Positions 5,646-36,252 of a stretch of 64,000 nucleotides of DNA are shown here, piece after piece. Location: positions 844 through 64,843 of the forward strand of contig JAIBJN010000002.1 in NCBI GenBank assembly GCA_020029595.1. The letters are read 5' to 3'. The notes under the pieces were generated by a model that was not told the origin of the DNA, searched no databases, and worked only from the letters and a program-made list of their open reading frames with translations. Made by a program: the position numbers and the translations under genes. Numbering within the stretch: the first letter of the stretch is position 1; every line of letters starts with the position of its first letter. The DNA comes from Actinomycetota bacterium. GTDB taxonomy: Bacteria > Actinomycetota > Thermoleophilia > Gaiellales > Gaiellaceae.

Positions 5646-5908
5646 TAGACGAGCACGAAGGCCAGCAGGCCGCCGAGGAGCGCGTAGAAGACGACCGCCT
5701 CGGTGAGCGCGAACCCGAGCCACTGGATGCCGGTGAGCTCACCGCGGAGCTCGGGCTGGCGCGCGACCGCCTGGATCATGGAGCCGAAGATGTTGCCGAT
5801 GCCGATGCCGGCGCCGACCGCACCGAGGCCCACCCCGACGCCGAAGGCGATGGCCTTGCCCAGATCCGCAAGCCCCGCGTCGGTCGTCTGTGCGAGCAGT
5901 ATGTCCAC
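5645..5908 (-). CDS. atpE: F0F1 ATP synthase subunit c
   Basis: C-terminal part of track ORF 5645..6850: VDILLAQTTDAGLADLGKAIAFGVGVGLGAVGAGIGIGNIFGSMIQAVARQPELRGEL...LTEAVVFYALL (GxGxGxG, RQPE, carboxylate E). GTG at 5908 is preceded by AAGGAGG. Confidence 0.9.
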   Translation of the reverse strand: MDILLAQTTDAGLADLGKAIAFGVGVGLGAVGAGIGIGNIFGSMIQAVARQPELRGELTGIQWLGFALTEAVVFYALLGGLLAFVLV

Positions 5909-6084
5909 GGAATCCTCCTTTAGTGGTTCAGCCGGCGACACTGCCGGATTTCTGGCGCGCGAAAAGCAAGCGACGCTAGGACGCAGGGAGCGTCCATGCT
6001 GAGAAGCATGGGCGCGACTGAGGACGACGCCTGGCACAGCTTTGCAGCCGCCCAGAAACCGGCGTGTGTCGTCGGGTGAGCCAC

Positions 6085-23115: not shown

Positions 23116-23278
23116 CCTCGAGCCTCACCTCCGCGTAGCGCGCGCGCTCCACAGGCTCGCCGTTCCGCTCGACGAGCGCGTAGCGTGCGCCGACCCCGAG
23201 CCGCTCGAGGAGCGCCGCCAGCGTCTCCCCTCTCCCCACGGGCTGCTCGCGGCCGTTGACGACGACGTGCCCGCTCAC
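23072..23278 (-). CDS. thiS: sulfur-carrier protein ThiS
   Basis: 68 aa, ubiquitin-like, ending in ...VVARPVAGG (C-terminal GG). Lies between thiG and thiE. Confidence 0.85.
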
Positions 23279-24054
23279 GCCCCGTGGATCGCCCCCGCGA
23301 CCGGGCTGGAGGCCGCCGCGTCAGAGCCCTCCTCCATGATCCCCGCCCTGTGGGCTTCCCGCCCCGCCTCGACCGCGAGCCGGAAGGCCCGCGCCATCGC
23401 CACGGGGTCGCCCGCGCGCGCGATGGCCGTGTTCACGAGGACGGCGTCGGCGCCCATCTCCATCGCCTCCGCCGCGTGTGAGGGCGCGCCGAGCCCGGCG
23501 TCCACGACGAGCGGGACCTCGGCCTGCTCGACCATGATGCGGATCGCATCGCGGAGCTTGAGCCCGCGGCCGCTCCCGATCGGCGCGGCCAGCGGCATCA
23601 CCGTCGCGCACCCGACCTCCTCGAGCTTCTTCTGGAGCACGGGGTCGGGGAGCACGTAGGGGAGGACCGTGAAGTCCTCCTCCACGAGCTGCGCCGCGGC
23701 CCGGAGCGTCTCGACCGGGTCCGGCAGCAGGTAGCGGGGGTCCGGGATCACCTCGAGCTTGACCCAGTCCGGAAGGCCGCCCGCCCTGGCCAGCCGCGCT
23801 GACCGCACCGCCTCCTCGGCCGTCTCGCAGCCCGAGGTGTTCGGGAGGAGCAGGACGTCCTCCGGGAGGAAGGCCGTGATGTCCTCGCCCGGGGCGTCGA
23901 AGTCGATCCGGCGCACCGCGACGGTGACGATCTGCGAGCCCGAGGCGGCGAGCGCCTCCCGCATCGTCTCGAAGGTGTCGTATTTGCCGGTACCCGTCAG
24001 GAGCCGCGAGCGAAACTCGCGCCCGGCGATGACGAGTGGATCGTGAGTGTTCAA
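23275..24054 (-). CDS. thiG: thiazole synthase
   Basis: 259 aa. ...[10 protein letters not shown]...LLPNTSGC...VKLEVI...[17 protein letters not shown] start at 24054 directly behind the TPP aptamer. Confidence 0.95.
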
Positions 24055-24056
24055 TC

Positions 24057-24137
24057 GAGTCCCTTCGCTGGCATGACCCAGATCAGGTGGTGGCGGTCGC
24101 AGCCTCGTGGCCGCCTCTCAGCCCCCGACAGGGGCTC
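24057..24137 (-). promoter_or_regulatory. TPP (THI-box) riboswitch controlling thiG-thiS-thiE
   Basis: The minus-strand RNA reads GAGCCCCUGUCGGGGGCUGAGAGGCGGCCACGAGGCUGCGACCGCCACCACCUGAUCUGGGUCAUGCCAGCGAAGGGACUC. It contains the invariant THI-element blocks CUGAGA, ACCUGAUCUGG, AUGCCAGCG and AGGGA in the right order and spacing. P3 is GGCGG...CCGCC. P1 is GAGcCCC/GGGaCUC. Confidence 0.9.
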
Positions 24138-24164
24138 CCGCTGGAACCAGGGTAGCAGCGGCCG

Positions 24165-30649: not shown

Positions 30650-32026
30650 CTAGGCGGGTAACTCCGGCGCGGGCTCCTCGGCCTCCGGCAGTTGCCAAAC
30701 GACCGCCGAGGGCCGGCCGATGCCCTCGTACGTGAAGCCGGCCGCGCGGGCGGTTGCCGGGTCGAGTAGGTTCCGCCCGTCCACGATGAGAGGCGTCCGC
30801 ATAGCCTGCCGCACCTCAGGCGAGGCCAACCGGCCGAGCTCGGGCCACTCGGTCACGACGACTGCGGCGTCGGCGCCGTCGACGGCCTCGAGGAGGGTCT
30901 CGGCGAACTCCACCCCTCCGAGGAGCTCTCGGGCTTCCTCGAGCGCGACGGGATCCCAGGCGCGCACGACCGCGCCCTCAGTGAGGAGGCGGGGCACGAG
31001 CACGAGACTCGGCGCCTCCCGCATGTCGTTCGTGCCCGGCTTGAAGGCGAGGCCCAGGAGCGCCACGGTCCGGCCCCGCAGGTCACCGAGGTGGGCCTGG
31101 AGCTTCTGCACGATGCGCCGCTTCTGGAGCTCGTTGACCTCGATCACCGCCGTGAGGAGCTGGAAGTGGTACCCGGAGTTCGCCGCGAGCTGCTTGAGAG
31201 CCGAGGCGTCCTTGGGAAAGCACGAGCCCCCGTAGCCGATGCCCGCTTTCAGGAAGTGCGGCCCGACGCGGTCGTCCAGCCCGACCCCGCGCGCCACCTC
31301 CTCGATGTCTGCCCCGACGAGCTCGCAGACGTTCGCAATCTCGTTGATGAAGCTGATCCTCGTCGCAAGCGCCGCGTTCGAGGCGAGCTTGATCATCTCC
31401 GCGGAGGCGACGTCGGTGCGCACGATCGGCGCTCCGAGCGGCTCGTACAGGGCCGCCACGCGGTCGCCGTCGGCATCCACGAAGGCCCCGACGACGACGC
31501 GGGCCGGCTCTCTGAAGTTCGCCAGGGCCGTCCCCTCCGCGAGGAACTCCGGGTTCGAGACGTAGCCCACGAAGGGAAGGCCGCGCGCGTCGAGGCGCGC
31601 CCGCACTCGCTCGCCGGTCCGCACGGGGACTGTGCTCTTCATGACGAGCACGATCCGCTCGTCGAGGCCGGAGAGCTCGTCGACGACCTGCCAAACCGCG
31701 GAGAGGTCGGCGTCGCCGGAGTACGCAGAGGGCGTCCCGACGCAGACGAAGGCGAGGCCGGCCGACTCGACGACGTCGCGCATCTCGAGCGTGAAGCGGA
31801 GCCGATCGCGGTTCCGGGCGAGCATCTCGCCGAGACCGGGCTCGTGGATCGGAACCTCCCCGGCCGCGAGGGCCGCCACACGCTCCGGCACGACGTCCCT
31901 GACCGTCACGCGGTGGCCGAGCTCGGCGAAGCAGGCGGCCGTGACGAGGCCGACCCACCCCGCACCCAGGACGCCAAGGGGCTCGCGGTCCACGGAAGGG
32001 AGTCTAGTGCGCCCTCCGCGGCTCAC
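30650..32026 (-). CDS. UDP-glucose/UDP-N-acetylhexosamine 6-dehydrogenase family protein
   Basis: 458-aa ORF. LGVLGAGWVGLVTAACFAELGH (NAD fold), GYGGSCFPKD (catalytic Cys), LGLAFKPGTNDMREAP. GTG at 31993 is a likely alternative start. The substrate (UDP-Glc or UDP-GlcNAc) cannot be told from the sequence alone. Confidence 0.9.
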   Translation of the reverse strand: MSRGGRTRLPSVDREPLGVLGAGWVGLVTAACFAELGHRVTVRDVVPERVAALAAGEVPIHEPGLGEMLARNRDRLRFTLEMRDVVESAGLAFVCVGTPSAYSGDADLSAVWQVVDELSGLDERIVLVMKSTVPVRTGERVRARLDARGLPFVGYVSNPEFLAEGTALANFREPARVVVGAFVDADGDRVAALYEPLGAPIVRTDVASAEMIKLASNAALATRISFINEIANVCELVGADIEEVARGVGLDDRVGPHFLKAGIGYGGSCFPKDASALKQLAANSGYHFQLLTAVIEVNELQKRRIVQKLQAHLGDLRGRTVALLGLAFKPGTNDMREAPSLVLVPRLLTEGAVVRAWDPVALEEARELLGGVEFAETLLEAVDGADAAVVVTEWPELGRLASPEVRQAMRTPLIVDGRNLLDPATARAAGFTYEGIGRPSAVVWQLPEAEEPAPELPA

Positions 32027-32144
32027 TGTCCCCCGTCAAGGGGATGCGAACCTGCCGCAGGCGTTGCTCTCACGTTGGAGGGGTGGTGCCGGGCTATCCA
32101 CACGACCAAAGGTGAGCTATGGTCCAGTTCCTTCGTGCAGTTCG

Positions 32145-32166
32145 ATCGAAAGGCGGCCCTTTCGAT
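32145..32166. repeat. 22-bp palindrome ATCGAAAGG-CGGC-CCTTTCGAT overlapping the ATG of the first LuxR-type gene
   Basis: 9-bp arms at 32145-32153 and 32158-32166 with loop CGGC. The last two bases of the right arm are the A and T of ATG 32165. A GAAAGG Shine-Dalgarno-like element lies in the left arm. Confidence 0.7.
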
Positions 32167-32932
32167 GAGTCTTTCTGAGCATCGCACCGCAGTTCTGCTG
32201 GACCGGCATCCCATCTGGCTGGACGTCGTGGAGCAGGTTCTCGAGCGCATCGGAGTCGAAGTCGAGGGCAAGGCAACCTCTCCCGACCGCGCCCTCGCTC
32301 TCATCGAGGAGCACAGGCCCAGCCTGCTCGTGCTGGGCATCGGGATGGGCGATCGAGAGCTAGACGGGATCGAATACGTCGGTCTCGCACGGCAGCGCGC
32401 GCCAGAACTCAAGGTGGTCGTGCACTCCGCGCACGCCGATCCGCAGCACGTCGACGCGGCGCTCGCGGCCGGCGCGCAGGCCTACGTGCTCAAGTCCGCA
32501 CACGCCGACGACCTCGCCTCTGCGATCCGGCAGGCATTCGATCACTCCGTTTACCTCGCCCGCCGACGCAACGGGAGGCGGCAGCTGGCCCCCGAGTCCG
32601 TCGCCGAGACGTGGGGGCTCACCCGCCGTGAGCTCGAGATCCTCACCCTGGTGGCGGAGGGGCACTCGAACGCACAGCTCGCGCGGATGCTGTGGGTGAC
32701 GGAGCAGACCGTCAAGTACCACCTCTCCAACGTCTACCGCAAGCTCGATCTCTCGAACCGGACCGAGGCAGGTCGGTGGGCGCAGCTCCACGGCCTGCTC
32801 CCGACCGAGTCGACGCCGAACGGAGGGGTGCCCCCGCCGGAGCCGCACGAGCGCGACGGCCACGCGTTCGGGGCCAGGCCCGCGCCTGCACATCGAGATG
32901 AGGGGGCGACGGCGGGCTGGCGGGACCACTGA
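32165..32932 (+). CDS. LuxR/NarL-family regulator with atypical (aspartate-less) receiver domain, copy 1
   Basis: From ATG 32165: MSLSEHRTAVLLDRHPIW... The receiver fold is kept (conserved S in VVVHSAH, K in YVLKSA), but the phospho-acceptor position reads SLLVLGIGMG (G instead of D). The C-terminal HTH is [43 protein letters not shown]. 255 aa. Confidence 0.85.
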   Translation: MSLSEHRTAVLLDRHPIWLDVVEQVLERIGVEVEGKATSPDRALALIEEHRPSLLVLGIGMGDRELDGIEYVGLARQRAPELKVVVHSAHADPQHVDAALAAGAQAYVLKSAHADDLASAIRQAFDHSVYLARRRNGRRQLAPESVAETWGLTRRELEILTLVAEGHSNAQLARMLWVTEQTVKYHLSNVYRKLDLSNRTEAGRWAQLHGLLPTESTPNGGVPPPEPHERDGHAFGARPAPAHRDEGATAGWRDH

Positions 32933-33050
32933 GAGTTCTCCACCGGGTTTCCCCAGCTTCTCCACAGATCTCCACGAGCCCCCATTCGAGGGATTCTCGC
33001 GGGGTGAGGACGTTTTCCACACTTTCGGCTAGGTCCCACACTTGCGGTTC

Positions 33051-33080
33051 CTGCTTCGATGCGATAGAAGCAGCGTTTTG
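33051..33080 (+). terminator. hairpin plus T-tract (possible weak intrinsic terminator or attenuator) between the two LuxR genes
   Basis: CTGCTTC-gatgcgata-GAAGCAG (7-bp stem, 9-nt loop) followed by CGTTTTG. It lies 118 nt after the copy-1 stop and 30 nt before the copy-2 start. The T-tract is short, so this is speculative. Confidence 0.3.
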
Positions 33081-33089
33081 CGGCTCTCG

Positions 33090-33111
33090 ATCGAAAGGCG
33101 GCCCTTTCGGT
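33090..33111. repeat. second copy of the palindrome, ATCGAAAGG-CGGC-CCTTTCGGT, overlapping the GTG of the second LuxR-type gene
   Basis: Matches the first palindrome at 21 of 22 positions. The right arm ends in the G and T of GTG 33110 (one G-U wobble). Confidence 0.7.
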
Positions 33112-33772
33112 GAACACTCACCTGGACAAACGCACTGCCGTCCTCCTGGACCAGTACCCGCTGTGGTTGGAGACATTGGCGCAGGTCGTCGAGCGAGTCG
33201 GCGTCGACGTGGTCGCGAAGACCAACTCCTCTTCCGCAGCCCTGGCCGTCATCGAGGCACGGTCTCCCAACCTCCTCATCACAGGCATCAAGACGCCCGA
33301 GGCGGACGTCGACGGCGTCGGCCTCATCTGCCGGGCGCGCGAGCTGCACCCGGAGCTGAAGGTGATCGTCCTCTCCATGTACGACGATCCCCAGCTCATC
33401 GAGGCGGCGTTCGCTGCGGGCGCCGTCGCCTACGTTCTCAAGACGGCACACCCCGATGACCTCACGTCCGCCGTCCGGCAGGCGTTCGAGCACTCCATCT
33501 ACCTGGCCGGCGCCCGGCCTGCCCGAGCGCCCGCGGCTCGCCCGACGGACTCGCCGGGGCTGACGCGACGGGAGCTGGAGATCCTTCGGCTGGTCGCCGA
33601 GGGGCATTCGAACGCCGAGCTTGCCCGGATGCTGTGGGTCACCGAGCAGACGGTGAAGTTCCACTTGTCGAACATCTACCGGAAGCTCAACGTGTCCAAC
33701 CGGACAGAGGCGAGCCGCTGGGCCCAGCTCCGCGGTCTCCTGCAGGCACCGGCCGTGCCGGCGACCGCATAG
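33110..33772 (+). CDS. LuxR/NarL-family regulator with atypical (aspartate-less) receiver domain, copy 2
   Basis: 220 aa. [12 protein letters not shown]..., acceptor position [11 protein letters not shown] (G instead of D), [46 protein letters not shown]. Clearly paralogous to copy 1. Confidence 0.85.
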
Positions 33773-33785
33773 GGGTCGGGGCGAC

Positions 33786-34328
33786 GTGCTCCTTCATCGA
33801 GGCCCCGTGAGGGCGGGATCGAGCGCGGACGCGCCGCTGTCCACCGAACCGGCGAACGACGCCCCGCATCGCCTCATTCGGGACGTGACGTTCGGGGAGG
33901 GCGTGATCGTGCATCCCTTCACGAACCTCTACGGATGTCGGATAGGTGCGCACACGCGCATCGGCCCCTTCGTCGAGATCCAGGGTGGCGTGGTCATCGG
34001 GGCGCAGTGCAAGATCCAGAGCCACGCCTTCCTGTGCGAGGGCGTCGACATCGAGGACGAGGTCTTCGTCGGTCACGGCGTCGTGTTCGTGAACGACAAG
34101 TTCCCCCGGGCGACGATCGACGAGGGGCTCCTCCAGACGAACAGCGACTGGACCGTACTCGCGACGACCGTCGAACGGCGCGCGTCCCTCGGCTCGGGCG
34201 CGGTGATCCTCGGCGGCGTGCGAATCGGCGAAGGCGCCCTGGTGGGCGCCGGTGCAGTCGTCACACGAGACGTTCCGGCCGGCCAGGTCGTCGCCGGAAA
34301 CCCCGCCCGCGAGCTCGTGCGGCGCTAG
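33786..34328 (+). CDS. left-handed beta-helix (hexapeptide) sugar N-acetyltransferase, WlbB/WbpD-like
   Basis: 180-aa [60 protein letters not shown]...[40 protein letters not shown]. The layout matches UDP-2-acetamido-3-amino-2,3-dideoxyuronate N-acetyltransferases. The start is uncertain. Confidence 0.8.
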
Positions 34329-34390
34329 GAACCGGTCGACGACATCGGGACCGTTCGGAAGCGTGGCCGCGCCACTGCCGTTCATGGGAC

Positions 34391-35434
34391 ATGACGCGCC
34401 CTTGCGGGGTCGTCCTCGTCCTCAATCGCCGACGCGCCGTGGGCCCGAGCCCCGCGGTCTGGCCGCCGCAGCTCATGCCGGTCGCCAATCGCCCCCTGCT
34501 CGACCACGCCCTTGGGGCCCTGCGGGCCGCCGGGGTGGCGGAGATCGTCGTGGTCGCCGACTCCTCGAGCGGATCCAGGGTGCGAGGAGCCCTGACGAAC
34601 TCGAGGTCTCGGAGCGCGGTACACGTCATCGACGCGCCCCGTTCCGGCGGCGAGGTGGCCGCGCTCGACGCCGCCCGCCGGATGACCGGGGACGCCCCGC
34701 TCGTCGTCCATCGCGGTGACGCGCTCGCCGGCGATCTCCTGTCCCACGAGCTGCCGCGCTTCCTCGCCGGCCAGGCGGATGCCGCGGTGCTCTTCCTCGA
34801 GCCGGGCTTGAGGCAGGAGGACCCGTCCCGTCACCTCTCCGCGTGGGCGCGCCACAGCCGCCCGGAACCCCTGGGCATCGAGCTGCTCTCCTCGCCCATG
34901 CTGGATGCTCTCTGCACCCTGAACCGAACCGGGGGAGGAAAGCGCAGGCTCGCCGGCCCGTTGGCGCAGGCCGGAGGCTCCGGCTGGGAGGTCGAGCAGC
35001 GCGTCCTCACGCACGGGTGGCGCCTGCACGAGAGCGCCGAGAGCGTTCTCGACGGCAATCGCTTCGCTCTCGAGGACCTCAGCGCGGACTGGCACCCCGA
35101 CTCGCTCGTACGAACGCGCCTCGAAGGCCGAGTCGCAATCCATCCCTCGAGTCGCGTGGAGGACTCGCTGCTCCGCGGCCCCTGCGTGATCGGTGCGAAC
35201 GCCACGATCCGCCACGCGTACGTGGGGCCCTACACGGCGATCGGTCCCGGCTGCGTGATCGAGAACGCCGAGCTCGAGCACTCGGTGATCCTGCAGGACG
35301 CGACCATTCGCGACGTCGGTTGGCGGCTCGAGCACAGCGTCGTGGGCGCCCGCGCCCGCGTAGCGCGCGAGTTTCGCCTCCCGCAAGCCGTTCACCTCTG
35401 TCTCGGCGACGACGCGCGCATCTCCGTGAGTTGA
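34391..35434 (+). CDS. sugar-1-phosphate nucleotidyltransferase-like protein (long RmlA-type with C-terminal LbH domain) with a degenerate active-site loop
   Basis: From ATG 34391, 347 aa. PQLMPVANRPLLDHALGALRAAGVAEIVVV and the C-terminal IGANATIRHAYVGPYTAIGPGCVIENAELEHSVILQDATI match long-form G1P thymidylyltransferases. The GGxGTRLxPLT loop is replaced by VLNRRRAVGPSPAVWP. Confidence 0.7.
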   Translation: MTRPCGVVLVLNRRRAVGPSPAVWPPQLMPVANRPLLDHALGALRAAGVAEIVVVADSSSGSRVRGALTNSRSRSAVHVIDAPRSGGEVAALDAARRMTGDAPLVVHRGDALAGDLLSHELPRFLAGQADAAVLFLEPGLRQEDPSRHLSAWARHSRPEPLGIELLSSPMLDALCTLNRTGGGKRRLAGPLAQAGGSGWEVEQRVLTHGWRLHESAESVLDGNRFALEDLSADWHPDSLVRTRLEGRVAIHPSSRVEDSLLRGPCVIGANATIRHAYVGPYTAIGPGCVIENAELEHSVILQDATIRDVGWRLEHSVVGARARVAREFRLPQAVHLCLGDDARISVS

Positions 35435-35604
35435 CCCGGCCCGCCGCCGTCAGTCGGACTTTTCTCGGACCGACTTTTTCTCGACTCCGAAGACCGCTTC
35501 TCGCCTCGTTCTCCTCCCGTAGAGGACAAGGCGCGGGCGGCGCGCGCCATTCGCCGGGCCACGCGCTCGGCGCTCGGGCGAGCGCCCACCGACAGGAGGG
35601 CGAG

Positions 35605-36252
35605 ATGGGGAGCGACATGCGAACGCGGGCGGACAAGCTCGTGGCAAGCAGCGGGACGCGGCTGAGGCGCAACCGGACGATCACCAACTCGCCCGAGGAG
35701 GAGCGGGCGGTCGCGCAGGCGGTGGCCCGGGCGAAGGCCGGCGACCGCGAGGCGATTCGGTACCTCTACCTCCGCTACGCGAACAACGTCTACGGCTACG
35801 TGCGAAGCATCGTTCACGACGACTACGAGGCCGAGGACATCACCCAGCACGTCTTCGCAAAGCTCATCACAGTCATCGACCGGTACGAGCCCCTCGCGGT
35901 GCCTTTCTCGCGGTGGATGCTGCGGCTCGCGCACAACGCCGCGATCGACTACCTGCGCGCGTGCAACGCGATTCCCTGCGAGGAGGTGCGAAAAGCCGAT
36001 GAGCCCGCGGACGAAGGCCGGGGCGACCGCTCGAGCTGTCTGCGCAGCGCCCTGGCCGAGCTTTCAGATGACCAGCGCAACGTCGTCGTCTTGCGCCATC
36101 TCGTAGGCCTCTCCCCGGGCGAGATCGCCGAGCGGATGGATCGGACCGAGAGCTCGATTCACGGCCTCCATCATCGCGCCCGCGGCGCATTGCGGGCGCG
36201 CCTCGAGCAGATGGAGTCCGGTCCGGTCACTGCGCAGGGGGTGACCCGGTGA
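35605..36252 (+). CDS. ECF-type RNA polymerase sigma-70 family factor
   Basis: From ATG 35605 (AGGAGGG 7 nt upstream), 215 aa. Region 2 is AEDITQHVFAKLITVIDRYEP...FSRWMLRLAHNAAIDYLR. Region 4 is LSDDQRNVVVLRHLVGLSPGEIAERMDRTESSIHGLHHRARGALR. Confidence 0.88.
   Translation: MGSDMRTRADKLVASSGTRLRRNRTITNSPEEERAVAQAVARAKAGDREAIRYLYLRYANNVYGYVRSIVHDDYEAEDITQHVFAKLITVIDRYEPLAVPFSRWMLRLAHNAAIDYLRACNAIPCEEVRKADEPADEGRGDRSSCLRSALAELSDDQRNVVVLRHLVGLSPGEIAERMDRTESSIHGLHHRARGALRARLEQMESGPVTAQGVTR

Follow-up and report, generated by a model that had tools for sequence, protein, structure and literature searches.

In the window (the whole 64-kb stretch of DNA analysed here), two paralogous genes for LuxR-type regulators lie in tandem, and each of them starts inside a copy of the same palindrome. 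This raises the question of what the palindrome does at a start codon, and whether it acts as RNA or as DNA.

The element and the regulators that carry it

Copy 1 (ATCGAAAGGCGGCCCTTTCGAT) overlaps the LuxR1 ATG (32165-32167) and copy 2 (ATCGAAAGGCGGCCCTTTCGGT) overlaps the LuxR2 GTG (33110-33112), at the positions given by the first-pass annotation (32145-32166 and 33090-33111; Table 1). Both contain the run TCGATCGAAAGGCGGCCCTTTCG, which is identical at 23/23 positions, or at 27/28 when the following RTGA is included in the pairwise alignment. The upstream DNA around this run is otherwise unalignable between LuxR1 and LuxR2, and the coding regions differ at many positions, so that the earlier description of a conserved element between diverged flanks is accurate. 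A third full copy, which had not been seen on first reading, is indeed absent from the window: the two copies are the sole matches at up to three mismatches in 64 kb (0.00 expected from 100 shuffles), and with its filters off a covariance model gives no match besides them (45.4 and 40.3 bits).

Table 1. Coordinates in the window of the palindrome copies, the regulator genes and the upstream elements.
Feature	Positions	Strand	Description and basis
Palindrome copy 1	32145..32166	+	ATCGAAAGG-CGGC-CCTTTCGAT; string search, covariance model, 9-bp hairpin fold
Copy 1, family-conserved core	32147-32164		Left arm/SD CGAAAGG 32147-32153; loop CGGC 32154-32157; right arm (putative anti-SD mimic) CCTTTCG 32158-32164
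LuxR1	32165..32932	+	Atypical NarL-family response regulator, 255 aa; receiver and GerE HTH; Gly at phospho-acceptor (LLVLGIG)
Putative LuxR1 promoter	32095..32123	+	-35-like TATCCA 32095-32100; 17-nt spacer; -10-like TATGGT 32118-32123
Palindrome copy 2	33090..33111	+	ATCGAAAGG-CGGC-CCTTTCGGT; string search, covariance model, hairpin fold
Copy 2, core	33092-33109		Left arm 33092-33098; loop 33099-33102; right arm 33103-33109
LuxR2	33110..33772	+	Atypical NarL-family response regulator, 220 aa; GTG start; Gly at phospho-acceptor (LLITGIK)
Putative LuxR2 promoter	33042..33070	+	-35-like TTGCGG 33042-33047; 17-nt spacer; -10-like TAGAAG 33065-33070
Second conserved upstream box	33013..33034	+	TTTTCCACACTTTCGGCTAGGT; lies shortly upstream of the putative LuxR2 -35; also in orthologues L001/L004 and L148

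Both proteins consist of an N-terminal receiver domain (PF00072; E=8e-17 in LuxR1 and 1e-15 in LuxR2) and a C-terminal GerE/LuxR HTH domain (PF00196; E=2e-17 and 4e-20, respectively), all above the curated cut-offs, and their best solved relatives are NarL, VraR, ChrA, and DevR. In a profile alignment to NarL, Gly is found at D59 and R/Q at D14, and LuxR1 and LuxR2 are therefore atypical (pseudo-receiver) regulators; the positions of NarL D13, Ser/Thr, and Lys are retained. No cognate histidine kinase adjoins them among the neighbours within about 10 kb on each side, the immediate neighbours being a UDP-glucose dehydrogenase, a hexapeptide transferase, an NTP-transferase, a sigma-70 r2/r4 protein, and a DegT aminotransferase.

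The start codons are supported as ATG 32165 and GTG 33110. The LuxR2 frame contains a TAG at 33065 and no start codon from there to the GTG; the LuxR1 frame contains a GTG at 32135, whose equivalent in orthologues runs straight into a TAG; and the N-termini of homologues start directly after the element. The same upstream stops, together with relatives in which the start is shifted by -1 or +1 nt against the element, led us to reject a coding role, in which the element would read RKAALS in the frame of the ATG.

Some 100 species of Gaiellaceae/Thermoleophilia have the core CGAAAGG-CGGC-CCTTTCG, with about one copy in each genome. In the wider search that had been proposed at the outset, the exact 19-mer was found in 103 stretches of GTDB genomes, 99 of which lie in Gaiellaceae/Thermoleophilia-type contigs, and all 99 of these clade copies lie at most one base from the ATG, GTG, or TTG of a homologous regulator's own start. 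The regulators concerned are orthologous or paralogous and atypical, with Gly in place of the phospho-Asp; they form at least 20 clusters at 43-62% identity, and their flanks are unconserved and unalignable. LuxR1 orthologues of the MSPSEHRTAVLLD type have the same element, as do two LuxR2 orthologues (P0002 and P0029, 75-76% identity). When relatives were picked by protein alone (n=77), 49 carried the element, 24 exactly and 25 with 1-3 mismatches, and those lacking it have ordinary open purine-rich SDs followed by unrelated spacers. Metagenomes contain more than 584 relatives, some of them with divergent leaders (for example L141, L165, and L170).

At other genes the element was found neither in the window, nor in 751 kb of 99 related loci, nor in viral contigs, and the pattern GAAAG-N6-CTTTC and the covariance model likewise gave no site at other genes in the window and the related loci. 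A phage or mobile origin was rejected on the lack of a match in the viral contigs. No Rfam match was obtained at E<=1 in the region 31000-35000, and literature searches on the sequence string and on Gaiella plus response regulator returned nothing relevant. At the gathering level, the window has a single Rfam match, to the TPP riboswitch (24042-24151). Judged by these sequence comparisons, the palindrome is a real element common to about 100 Gaiellales species and belongs to one family of non-phosphorylatable response regulators.

Folding, arm variation, and the ribosome-binding site

The explanation that we consider reasonably probable is that the element is a cis-acting hairpin in a short mRNA 5' leader, where it would hide the ribosome-binding site of these orphan regulators. 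The first-pass annotation had recognized GAAAGG in the left arm as SD-like; the location was right, and the SD-like sequence is longer, GAAAGGCGG (GAAAGG-CGG), comprising the left arm and three loop bases. It matches GAAAGGAGG at eight of nine positions and lies 8 nt before the start codon.

Copy 1 alone folds into a 9-bp hairpin of -12.0 kcal/mol, which is retained in the MFE structure of the predicted leader. Copy 2 alone forms a hairpin of -11.2 kcal/mol, whose outermost U·G pair is supplied by the GTG start, and in a longer context its MFE structure is without the full hairpin. Each of the inner seven pairs can form in 96-100% of 48 sequences, and the RNAalifold consensus contains the 7-bp stem, at -8.4 kcal/mol. 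Of the two extra pairs of the window copies, the one with the A of the start codon is open in 15/48 relatives and the one with its U/T in 25/48. The start codon is thus buried in the right arm in the two copies of this window, as had been proposed, but not in the family, where the conserved 7-bp stem (C..G) ends one base before it.

The arms vary in a manner that keeps the helix. The left (purine) arm is changed in 25/49 sequences and the right (pyrimidine) arm in only one, which is explained by an RNA helix being destabilised least by A to G in the purine arm: all six changes at the three A-U pairs are of this kind and yield G·U, and two sequences have U·G or G·U in place of C-G (part of the tallies was taken from result tables and by eye). 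Loop length ranges from 4 to 7 nt across variants whose arms remain complementary, including 8-bp arms with a 6-nt loop (L164), a 5-nt loop (L156), a 7-nt loop with new outer pairs (L165), and a hairpin with a bulged A (L140/L144). The hairpins of the indel variants still reach the start codon or stop one base short of it. The distance of the element to the start codon is 0, rarely +/-1 nt, and that to the promoter-like boxes varies by 20-50 nt. Furthermore, the non-palindromic centre CGGC is varied in 1/48 sequences and its orientation to the gene is constant, which fits an SD function. The SD thus lies in a stem whose complementarity was maintained in evolution, as is typical of SD-sequestering leader hairpins. 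Counting against the hairpin, the A-to-G pattern is equally allowed by SD:anti-SD pairing alone. No significant covariation was detected in the stem (shuffles equal the observed values) because the stem barely varies.

The hairpin would be transcribed if the promoters lie where conservation suggests. Blocks resembling -35 and -10 boxes sit 20-50 nt upstream of the element and are conserved as TTTGCA-N17-TATGGT across LuxR1 orthologues and as CTTTAC[AT]-N17-TA(G/C)A(A/C)(C/G) in LuxR2 relatives. The promoters were placed by these blocks only, because a scan with an E. coli-type consensus found none. The putative promoters imply 5' UTRs of about 35 nt for LuxR1 and about 33 nt for LuxR2, each holding its hairpin.

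In such a leader, the purine arm and loop would serve as the Shine-Dalgarno sequence. The pyrimidine arm, CCUUUCG, is identical to the sequence presumed for the 3' tail of 16S rRNA in these organisms, and it would act as a built-in anti-SD mimic, paired with the SD and reaching just to the start codon. With a folding energy of about -8 kcal/mol (7-bp core) or -11 to -12 kcal/mol (window copies), the hairpin would be expected to keep initiation low until it is opened. We infer both this repression and its conditional relief, for which a small RNA acting on the invariant GGCGGCCCUUUCG, an RNA-binding protein, a helicase, or temperature would be possible agents; alternatively, nothing opens the hairpin and it would be a constitutive throttle. 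When the 64-kb window was searched for an sRNA candidate complementary to the right arm and loop (CGAAAGGGCCGCC), only the element itself matched well. The amount of regulator protein would be a plausible control point because the phospho-acceptor Asp is missing. In L148 and L100 the unit of hairpin and ATG is duplicated: from the first copy, a uORF of 16 codons runs across the second hairpin to a stop 2 nt past the main ATG, which on its sequence is a translational-coupling layout.

The near-invariance of GGCGGCCCTTTCG, in which no C-to-U change was seen, exceeds the needs of pairing and hints at sequence-specific recognition. It can tentatively be proposed that the hairpin is a sequence-specific translational operator whose invariant GGCGGCCCUUUCG face is read by a clade-wide trans-acting partner. 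Such a partner could be a protein that binds RNA, an sRNA that activates, a small ligand, or the regulator itself, if it acts on RNA as well as DNA.

A possible DNA operator and other explanations

Since a DNA palindrome necessarily gives an RNA hairpin, the RNA and DNA readings are not fully separable in silico. As DNA, the element would be a 20-bp inverted repeat (TCGAAAGG-CGGC-CCTTTCGA) bound by a homo- or heterodimer of the regulators, which would block transcription about 25 bp past its start and so give transcriptional auto- or cross-regulation, either alone or on top of an RNA effect. We regard this as unlikely. What stood of the initial proposal of a dimer operator are size and symmetry: an inverted repeat of about 16-20 bp, as bound by LuxR/NarL-type dimers, is present, comparable to the BldM box, the 16-bp palindrome TCACcCgnncGgGTGA of the atypical orphan NarL-type pair BldM/WhiI (PMC4125116). 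Moreover, the same site stands at both tandem paralogues, the HTH region is almost invariant in subfamilies of only about 50% identity, paralleling the invariant element, and conservation beyond pairing needs would suit specific recognition by a protein.

The symmetric half-sites, fixed spacing, and looser centre of a dimer operator are, however, not what the variants display. The arms are unequally conserved, the non-palindromic centre is nearly invariant instead of free, the spacing shifts by 1-3 bp in variants with perfect arms, and the position of the element follows the start codon and not the promoter boxes. Regulon sites at other promoters were not found in the window or the 751 kb of related loci, every one of the 99 clade copies being at its gene's own start, and some relatives with the same HTH peptides have no element at all. 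A separate conserved box at the promoters (GGTCTAGG / TTTCCACACTTTCGGCTAGGT) is the better operator candidate. The upstream box TTTTCCACACTTTCGGCTAGGT is a candidate DNA operator distinct from the palindrome, and in 25 loci GTCTAG precedes the element by 55-85 nt. The LuxR-dimer operator is hence less supported than the RNA hairpin, for which the fixed start distance and the helix-keeping variants speak, and the original interpretation as a whole is borne out in part.

It is quite improbable that the element is only an extended ribosome-binding site, in which the 19 nt combine SD and spacer for efficient initiation and self-complementarity has no function. GAAAGGCGG is a near-consensus SD at ideal spacing, and the SD half (GGAAGGCGRC) survives in relatives without the right arm (L003, L183, and L171). 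Against this, a spacer is not normally constrained in sequence, but the one in this element varies least of all its parts and is exactly complementary to the SD arm; complementarity is re-established in new registers by the indel variants L165, L164, and L156; and the spacers of element-less relatives are unrelated.

A local accident is hardly credible, and the upstream genes are divergent or variable. A recent tandem duplication or short gene-conversion tract, which the tandem arrangement of the paralogues might suggest, is contradicted by the orthologues of about 100 species, which share the element, and by its presence in subfamilies with as little as 43% identity. An intrinsic terminator or attenuator is flagged by a scan at copy 1 (hairpin followed by GAGTCTTTCT) and does not hold for copy 2 and most relatives, where RTG and varied codons follow the stem in place of a T-run.

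Known systems and meaning for the Gaiellales

The rpoS leader hairpin is opened by the sRNAs DsrA and RprA. With this leader and with riboswitch expression platforms, the sequestering hairpin proposed here shares a cis anti-SD that would pair with the SD shortly before the start. Of the two arms, the one facing the SD is better conserved, which would be expected of a target for an opener. It differs from them in that no sRNA, aptamer, or opener was found (the complement of right arm and loop was searched for in the 64-kb window) and in that the predicted leader measures only about 35 nt and holds a single minimal hairpin, invariant over the whole order. By the searches made, the element would be an example of an SD-sequestering hairpin that is listed neither in Rfam nor in the literature.

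RNA thermometers (ROSE, fourU) also place an SD-containing hairpin before transcription-factor genes (compare lcrF and prfA), and their melting at 30-42 C depends on mismatches, bulges, or weak pairs. The stem of the element, in contrast, is perfect over 7-9 bp, with three G-C pairs in the core and a predicted energy of -11.2 to -12.0 kcal/mol at 37 C, and is thus neither imperfect nor of low stability; its hosts, unlike those of the thermometers, are soil bacteria. The operators of the MS2 coat protein (replicase), of ribosomal proteins, and of ThrRS resemble it as short, near-invariant hairpins on one gene's RBS with sequence conservation beyond pairing needs. Unlike in those cases, no binding protein is known or predicted for the element, and GerE-type HTH proteins are not known to bind RNA.

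The regulators themselves resemble BldM and WhiI in that they are atypical NarL-type proteins with degenerate phosphorylation pockets, no adjacent kinase, and sometimes two paralogues (PMC4125116). The element is operator-like in size and symmetry, as are the BldM, DosR, and lux boxes, but unlike these it is tied to the start codon, conserved asymmetrically, tolerant in spacing, and absent from the other genes sampled.

Gaiellales are abundant, almost uncultured soil Actinomycetota, and their regulation is essentially undescribed. The element offers a compact cis-element of 18-19 nt that is specific to one gene family in about 100 species, found in neither Rfam nor the searched literature, and that marks regulators which are not phosphorylatable at the canonical Asp. 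It is also a precise sequence tag for finding these genes and for correcting their start-codon annotation in metagenomes. If the hairpin gates translation, the level at which these orphan regulators are controlled would be identified, and the element would provide a minimal model with which SD sequestration in high-GC Actinomycetota could easily be tested. Should it moreover be a translational operator read by a partner, it would represent a post-transcriptional switch not described before, which takes the place of phosphorylation as input to this orphan regulator family throughout Gaiellales.

Conservation of the start-codon element

Each of the tandem genes LuxR1 (32165-32932, forward strand) and LuxR2 (33110-33772, forward strand) encodes a receiver domain and a GerE/LuxR HTH. 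In a pairwise alignment, their upstream DNA cannot be aligned except for 23 identical bases (TCGATCGAAAGGCGGCCCTTTCG), and their coding regions differ at many positions. The palindrome is found at both starts with the sequence and coordinates described in the first-pass annotation, which had also seen no further full copy. A search allowing up to three mismatches (0.00 matches expected in shuffles) and a covariance model with filters off (45.4 and 40.3 bits) agree that these two sites are the sole matches in the window. The possibility that the start codons lie elsewhere had also been raised. In LuxR2, an in-frame TAG at 33065 is followed by no start codon until GTG 33110; an in-frame GTG at 32135 lies ahead of LuxR1, and in LuxR1 orthologues a TAG comes right after that GTG. 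Judged from these upstream stops, both starts are sound. LuxR1-type leaders (e.g., about 1455-1470 in the related locus L124) contain a conserved GTG-TAG, a start codon then a stop, 5' of the hairpin and in frame with the main ATG. The window has GTG-CAG in its place (32135-32140), which leaves GTG 32135 open in frame.

Coordinates of the element and of other features in the window and in related loci
Feature	Sequence	Position	Strand	Remarks
Palindrome copy 1	ATCGAAAGGCGGCCCTTTCGAT	32145-32166	+	ends in AT of ATG 32165
Palindrome copy 2	ATCGAAAGGCGGCCCTTTCGGT	33090-33111	+	ends in GT of GTG 33110
Putative LuxR1 promoter	TATCCA-N17-TATGGT	32095-32123		from conserved-box alignment
Putative LuxR2 promoter	TTGCGG-N17-TAGAAG	33042-33070		from conserved-box alignment
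Second box, LuxR2	TTTTCCACACTTTCGGCTAGGT	33013-33034		just 5' of -35-like hexamer, as in many subfamilies, where the box reads TTTCCACACTTTCG(G/T)CTAGGT or GAAGGTCTAGG
Second box, LuxR1 type	GGTCTAG core; GGTCCAG in this window	32121-32127		core overlaps -10 (TATGGTCTAG)
Second box elsewhere		L001 about 5900-5925; L148 1352-1373		related loci
TPP riboswitch RF00059		24042-24151	-	62.3 bits; 5' of ThiG
ThiG		23275-24054	-	downstream of TPP riboswitch
Sigma-70 family protein		34843-36252	+	regions 2 and 4 only (ECF-like); domains at residues about 308-451

The regulators have 7239 homologues at E<=1e-20, derived from Gaiellaceae MAGs and soil metagenomes. LuxR2 orthologues at 75-76% identity in another gene neighbourhood have TCGAAAGGCGGCCCTTTCGATG at their starts. 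A search for the exact 19-mer, covering a single genome for each GTDB species, returned 103 stretches, 99 of them on Gaiellaceae/Thermoleophilia-type contigs. All 99 have the ATG, GTG, or TTG of a homologous regulator (~220 aa) at offset 0, or at -1/+1 in about eight; the four matches in other taxa (Pectinatus, a Bacillota MAG, Streptomyces, and Acidimicrobiales) are not at such regulator genes. Because an exact-match scan cannot reveal variation, a further sample of metagenome contigs was selected on protein alone, by the peptides LWVTEQT[VI] and HL[SA]N[IV]YRKL. Among its 77 usable loci, the 19-mer is exact in 24 and has one, two, or three mismatches in 20, 4, and 1, respectively; the covariance model added three indel variants, a few loci hold remnants, and about 20 are without the element and use ordinary purine-rich SDs. 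Element-bearing proteins form at least 20 clusters with 43-62% identity between them, and the base directly 5' of the element, the remaining leader, and codons 2-6 are unconserved across the family. The element is usually single-copy per genome; one related locus (L027) resembles the window in having two tandem paralogues with the element at each. The element and a regulator typical of the family are also present on a 5.4-kb contig (L065, JBLNEO010000241.1) that is assigned to 'Pseudomonadota bacterium' but is probably a mis-binned Gaiellales contig.

RNA hairpin versus DNA operator

Of the two readings first offered for the palindrome, an RNA hairpin occluding translation initiation and a DNA operator for a LuxR/NarL dimer, the former is supported by the comparative evidence, that is, by stem variants, indels, a fixed distance to the start codon, and a duplicated unit. 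The family-wide core, CGAAAGG-CGGC-CCTTTCG, comprises a 7-bp stem and a tetraloop, after which comes the start codon, and RNAalifold predicts exactly this stem (-8.4 kcal/mol). Across 48 aligned sequences, each of the inner seven positions of the stem is paired in 96-100%. The three A-U pairs change six times, always from A to G to yield G·U and in different protein subfamilies; C-G became U·G in one case and G·U in another. The outermost core pair is an A·G mismatch in two sequences, and the two extra pairs of the 9-bp window copies are unpaired in 15 and 25. Significant covariation was not found in the stem of this alignment because the stem hardly varies, and the pairing variants are suggestive of a hairpin rather than decisive.

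The purine arm (positions 0-5) varies in 25 of 49 sequences and GGCGGCCCTTTCG in 2 of 49. Such asymmetry is the pattern that would be expected of an RNA helix, since an A-U pair loses least by turning into G·U and any substitution in the pyrimidine arm either removes a G-C pair or makes A·C, and it would be unexpected for a symmetric DNA-binding dimer. In the indel variants, the hairpin is retained and ends at the start codon or one base before, with differing loops: an AG insertion gives a 6-nt loop and 8-bp arms (L164), two loci have a bulged A (L140 and L144), one has a 5-nt loop (L156), and another lost inner pairs and gained outer ones around a 7-nt loop (L165). These changes in spacing would disrupt a dimer operator and not a hairpin.

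We consider it unlikely that the palindrome is a dimer operator in DNA; if it is one, it may act jointly with an effect in RNA. Its size and symmetry do suit an operator, the HTH hardly varies within the family, and the invariance of the element itself is striking. This reading is, however, weakened by the asymmetric conservation of the arms, a non-palindromic centre that scarcely varies, the variable arm spacing, the link to the start codon, and the absence of other copies both from the window and from 751 kb of 99 related loci. Moreover, some relatives share the HTH peptides yet lack the element, and a second conserved box (GGTCTAGG) near the promoters is a more conventional operator candidate. 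In many subfamilies, this box is found 5' of the -35, whereas in LuxR1-type loci it overlies the -10; as a candidate DNA operator, it would have opposite effects at LuxR1-type genes and at the other gene type.

Leaders and proposed translational control

When aligned, 28 leaders drawn from many subfamilies share a conserved -35-like CTTTAC[AT] and, about 17 nt on, a -10-like TA-rich hexamer (TATGGT, TAGAAC, TACAAC, and others), from which a variable 20-50 nt lead to the element. As the distance to the promoter-like boxes varies and that to the start is fixed, the function of the element appears tied to translation initiation. The putative window promoters would give leaders of about 35 nt (LuxR1) and 33 nt (LuxR2), consisting mostly of the hairpin; a consensus promoter scan reported nothing.

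GAAAGGCGG matches the extended SD GAAAGGAGG at eight of nine positions, 8 nt from the start, and CCUUUC equals the sequence generally present in the 16S rRNA 3' tail. Because of these resemblances, the mRNA would carry a built-in anti-SD mimic, the pyrimidine arm, that pairs with its own SD. The isolated hairpins fold at -12.0 (copy 1) and -11.2 kcal/mol (copy 2); in folds of the predicted leaders, copy 1 is fully kept and copy 2 persists as a 6-bp version. By established initiation-site rules, a hairpin this stable should make initiation orders of magnitude less frequent. The loop and right arm are more invariant than pairing requires, a hint that a partner recognises their sequence; no candidate partner or opener was found within the 64-kb window. 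In one lineage (L148 1432-1500, L100 1160-1242, L136 1-70), there is a tandem duplication of the hairpin-plus-ATG unit, and the first copy drives a 16-codon uORF (MGENTAPQS[K/R]GGPFRW*) that crosses the second hairpin, which is slightly altered, and ends 2 nt past the regulator ATG. This layout looks like translational coupling and would be sensible only if hairpin-plus-ATG works in translation.

Regulators, gene neighbourhood, and standing of the motif

Both LuxR1 and LuxR2 have Gly at the NarL phospho-acceptor position D59 and R/Q at D14; of the two acidic pocket residues, just one is kept. The phospho-acceptor column across the family is G/E/S/D, so most members are pseudo-receivers. The C-terminus of LuxR1 is extended by a Pro/Gly-rich tail of about 35 aa. 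No histidine kinase gene was found among the neighbours examined, within about 10 kb on each side. With the phospho-acceptor missing in both proteins and a kinase gene not nearby, control of regulator abundance could stand in for phosphorylation, which is plausible by analogy with the atypical orphan regulators BldM and WhiI (PMC4125116).

Unlike their relatives in the loci L001 and L004, the window regulators lie within a sugar-nucleotide/O-antigen-like cluster (hexapeptide transferase, NTP-transferase, DegT aminotransferase, GFO/IDH/MocA oxidoreductase, and Wzy_C ligase-like genes), in which the gene for the sigma-70 protein lies about 2 kb 3' of the pair. Around their LuxR2 orthologues, L001/L004 share with the window the thi genes, a homocysteine-S-methyltransferase/MTS fusion, and an enoyl-CoA hydratase, so the neighbourhood is partly syntenic; the glycan-biosynthesis genes and LuxR1 look like an insertion. 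After the LuxR2 orthologues, L001 (6811-12047) and L004 (6676-11015) have ABC transporter and lasso-peptide-like genes (PqqD, a transglutaminase-like protease, an asparagine-synthase-like cyclase, and a small ORF), and L004 has an additional second GerE-only regulator.

No Rfam family matches the element, the literature search returned nothing on it, and the viral contigs hold no copy. On comparative grounds, the element appears to be a new clade-wide, gene-family-specific 5' leader motif with a known kind of mechanism, the SD-sequestering hairpin, and it would be of greater interest if a specific trans-acting opener exists.
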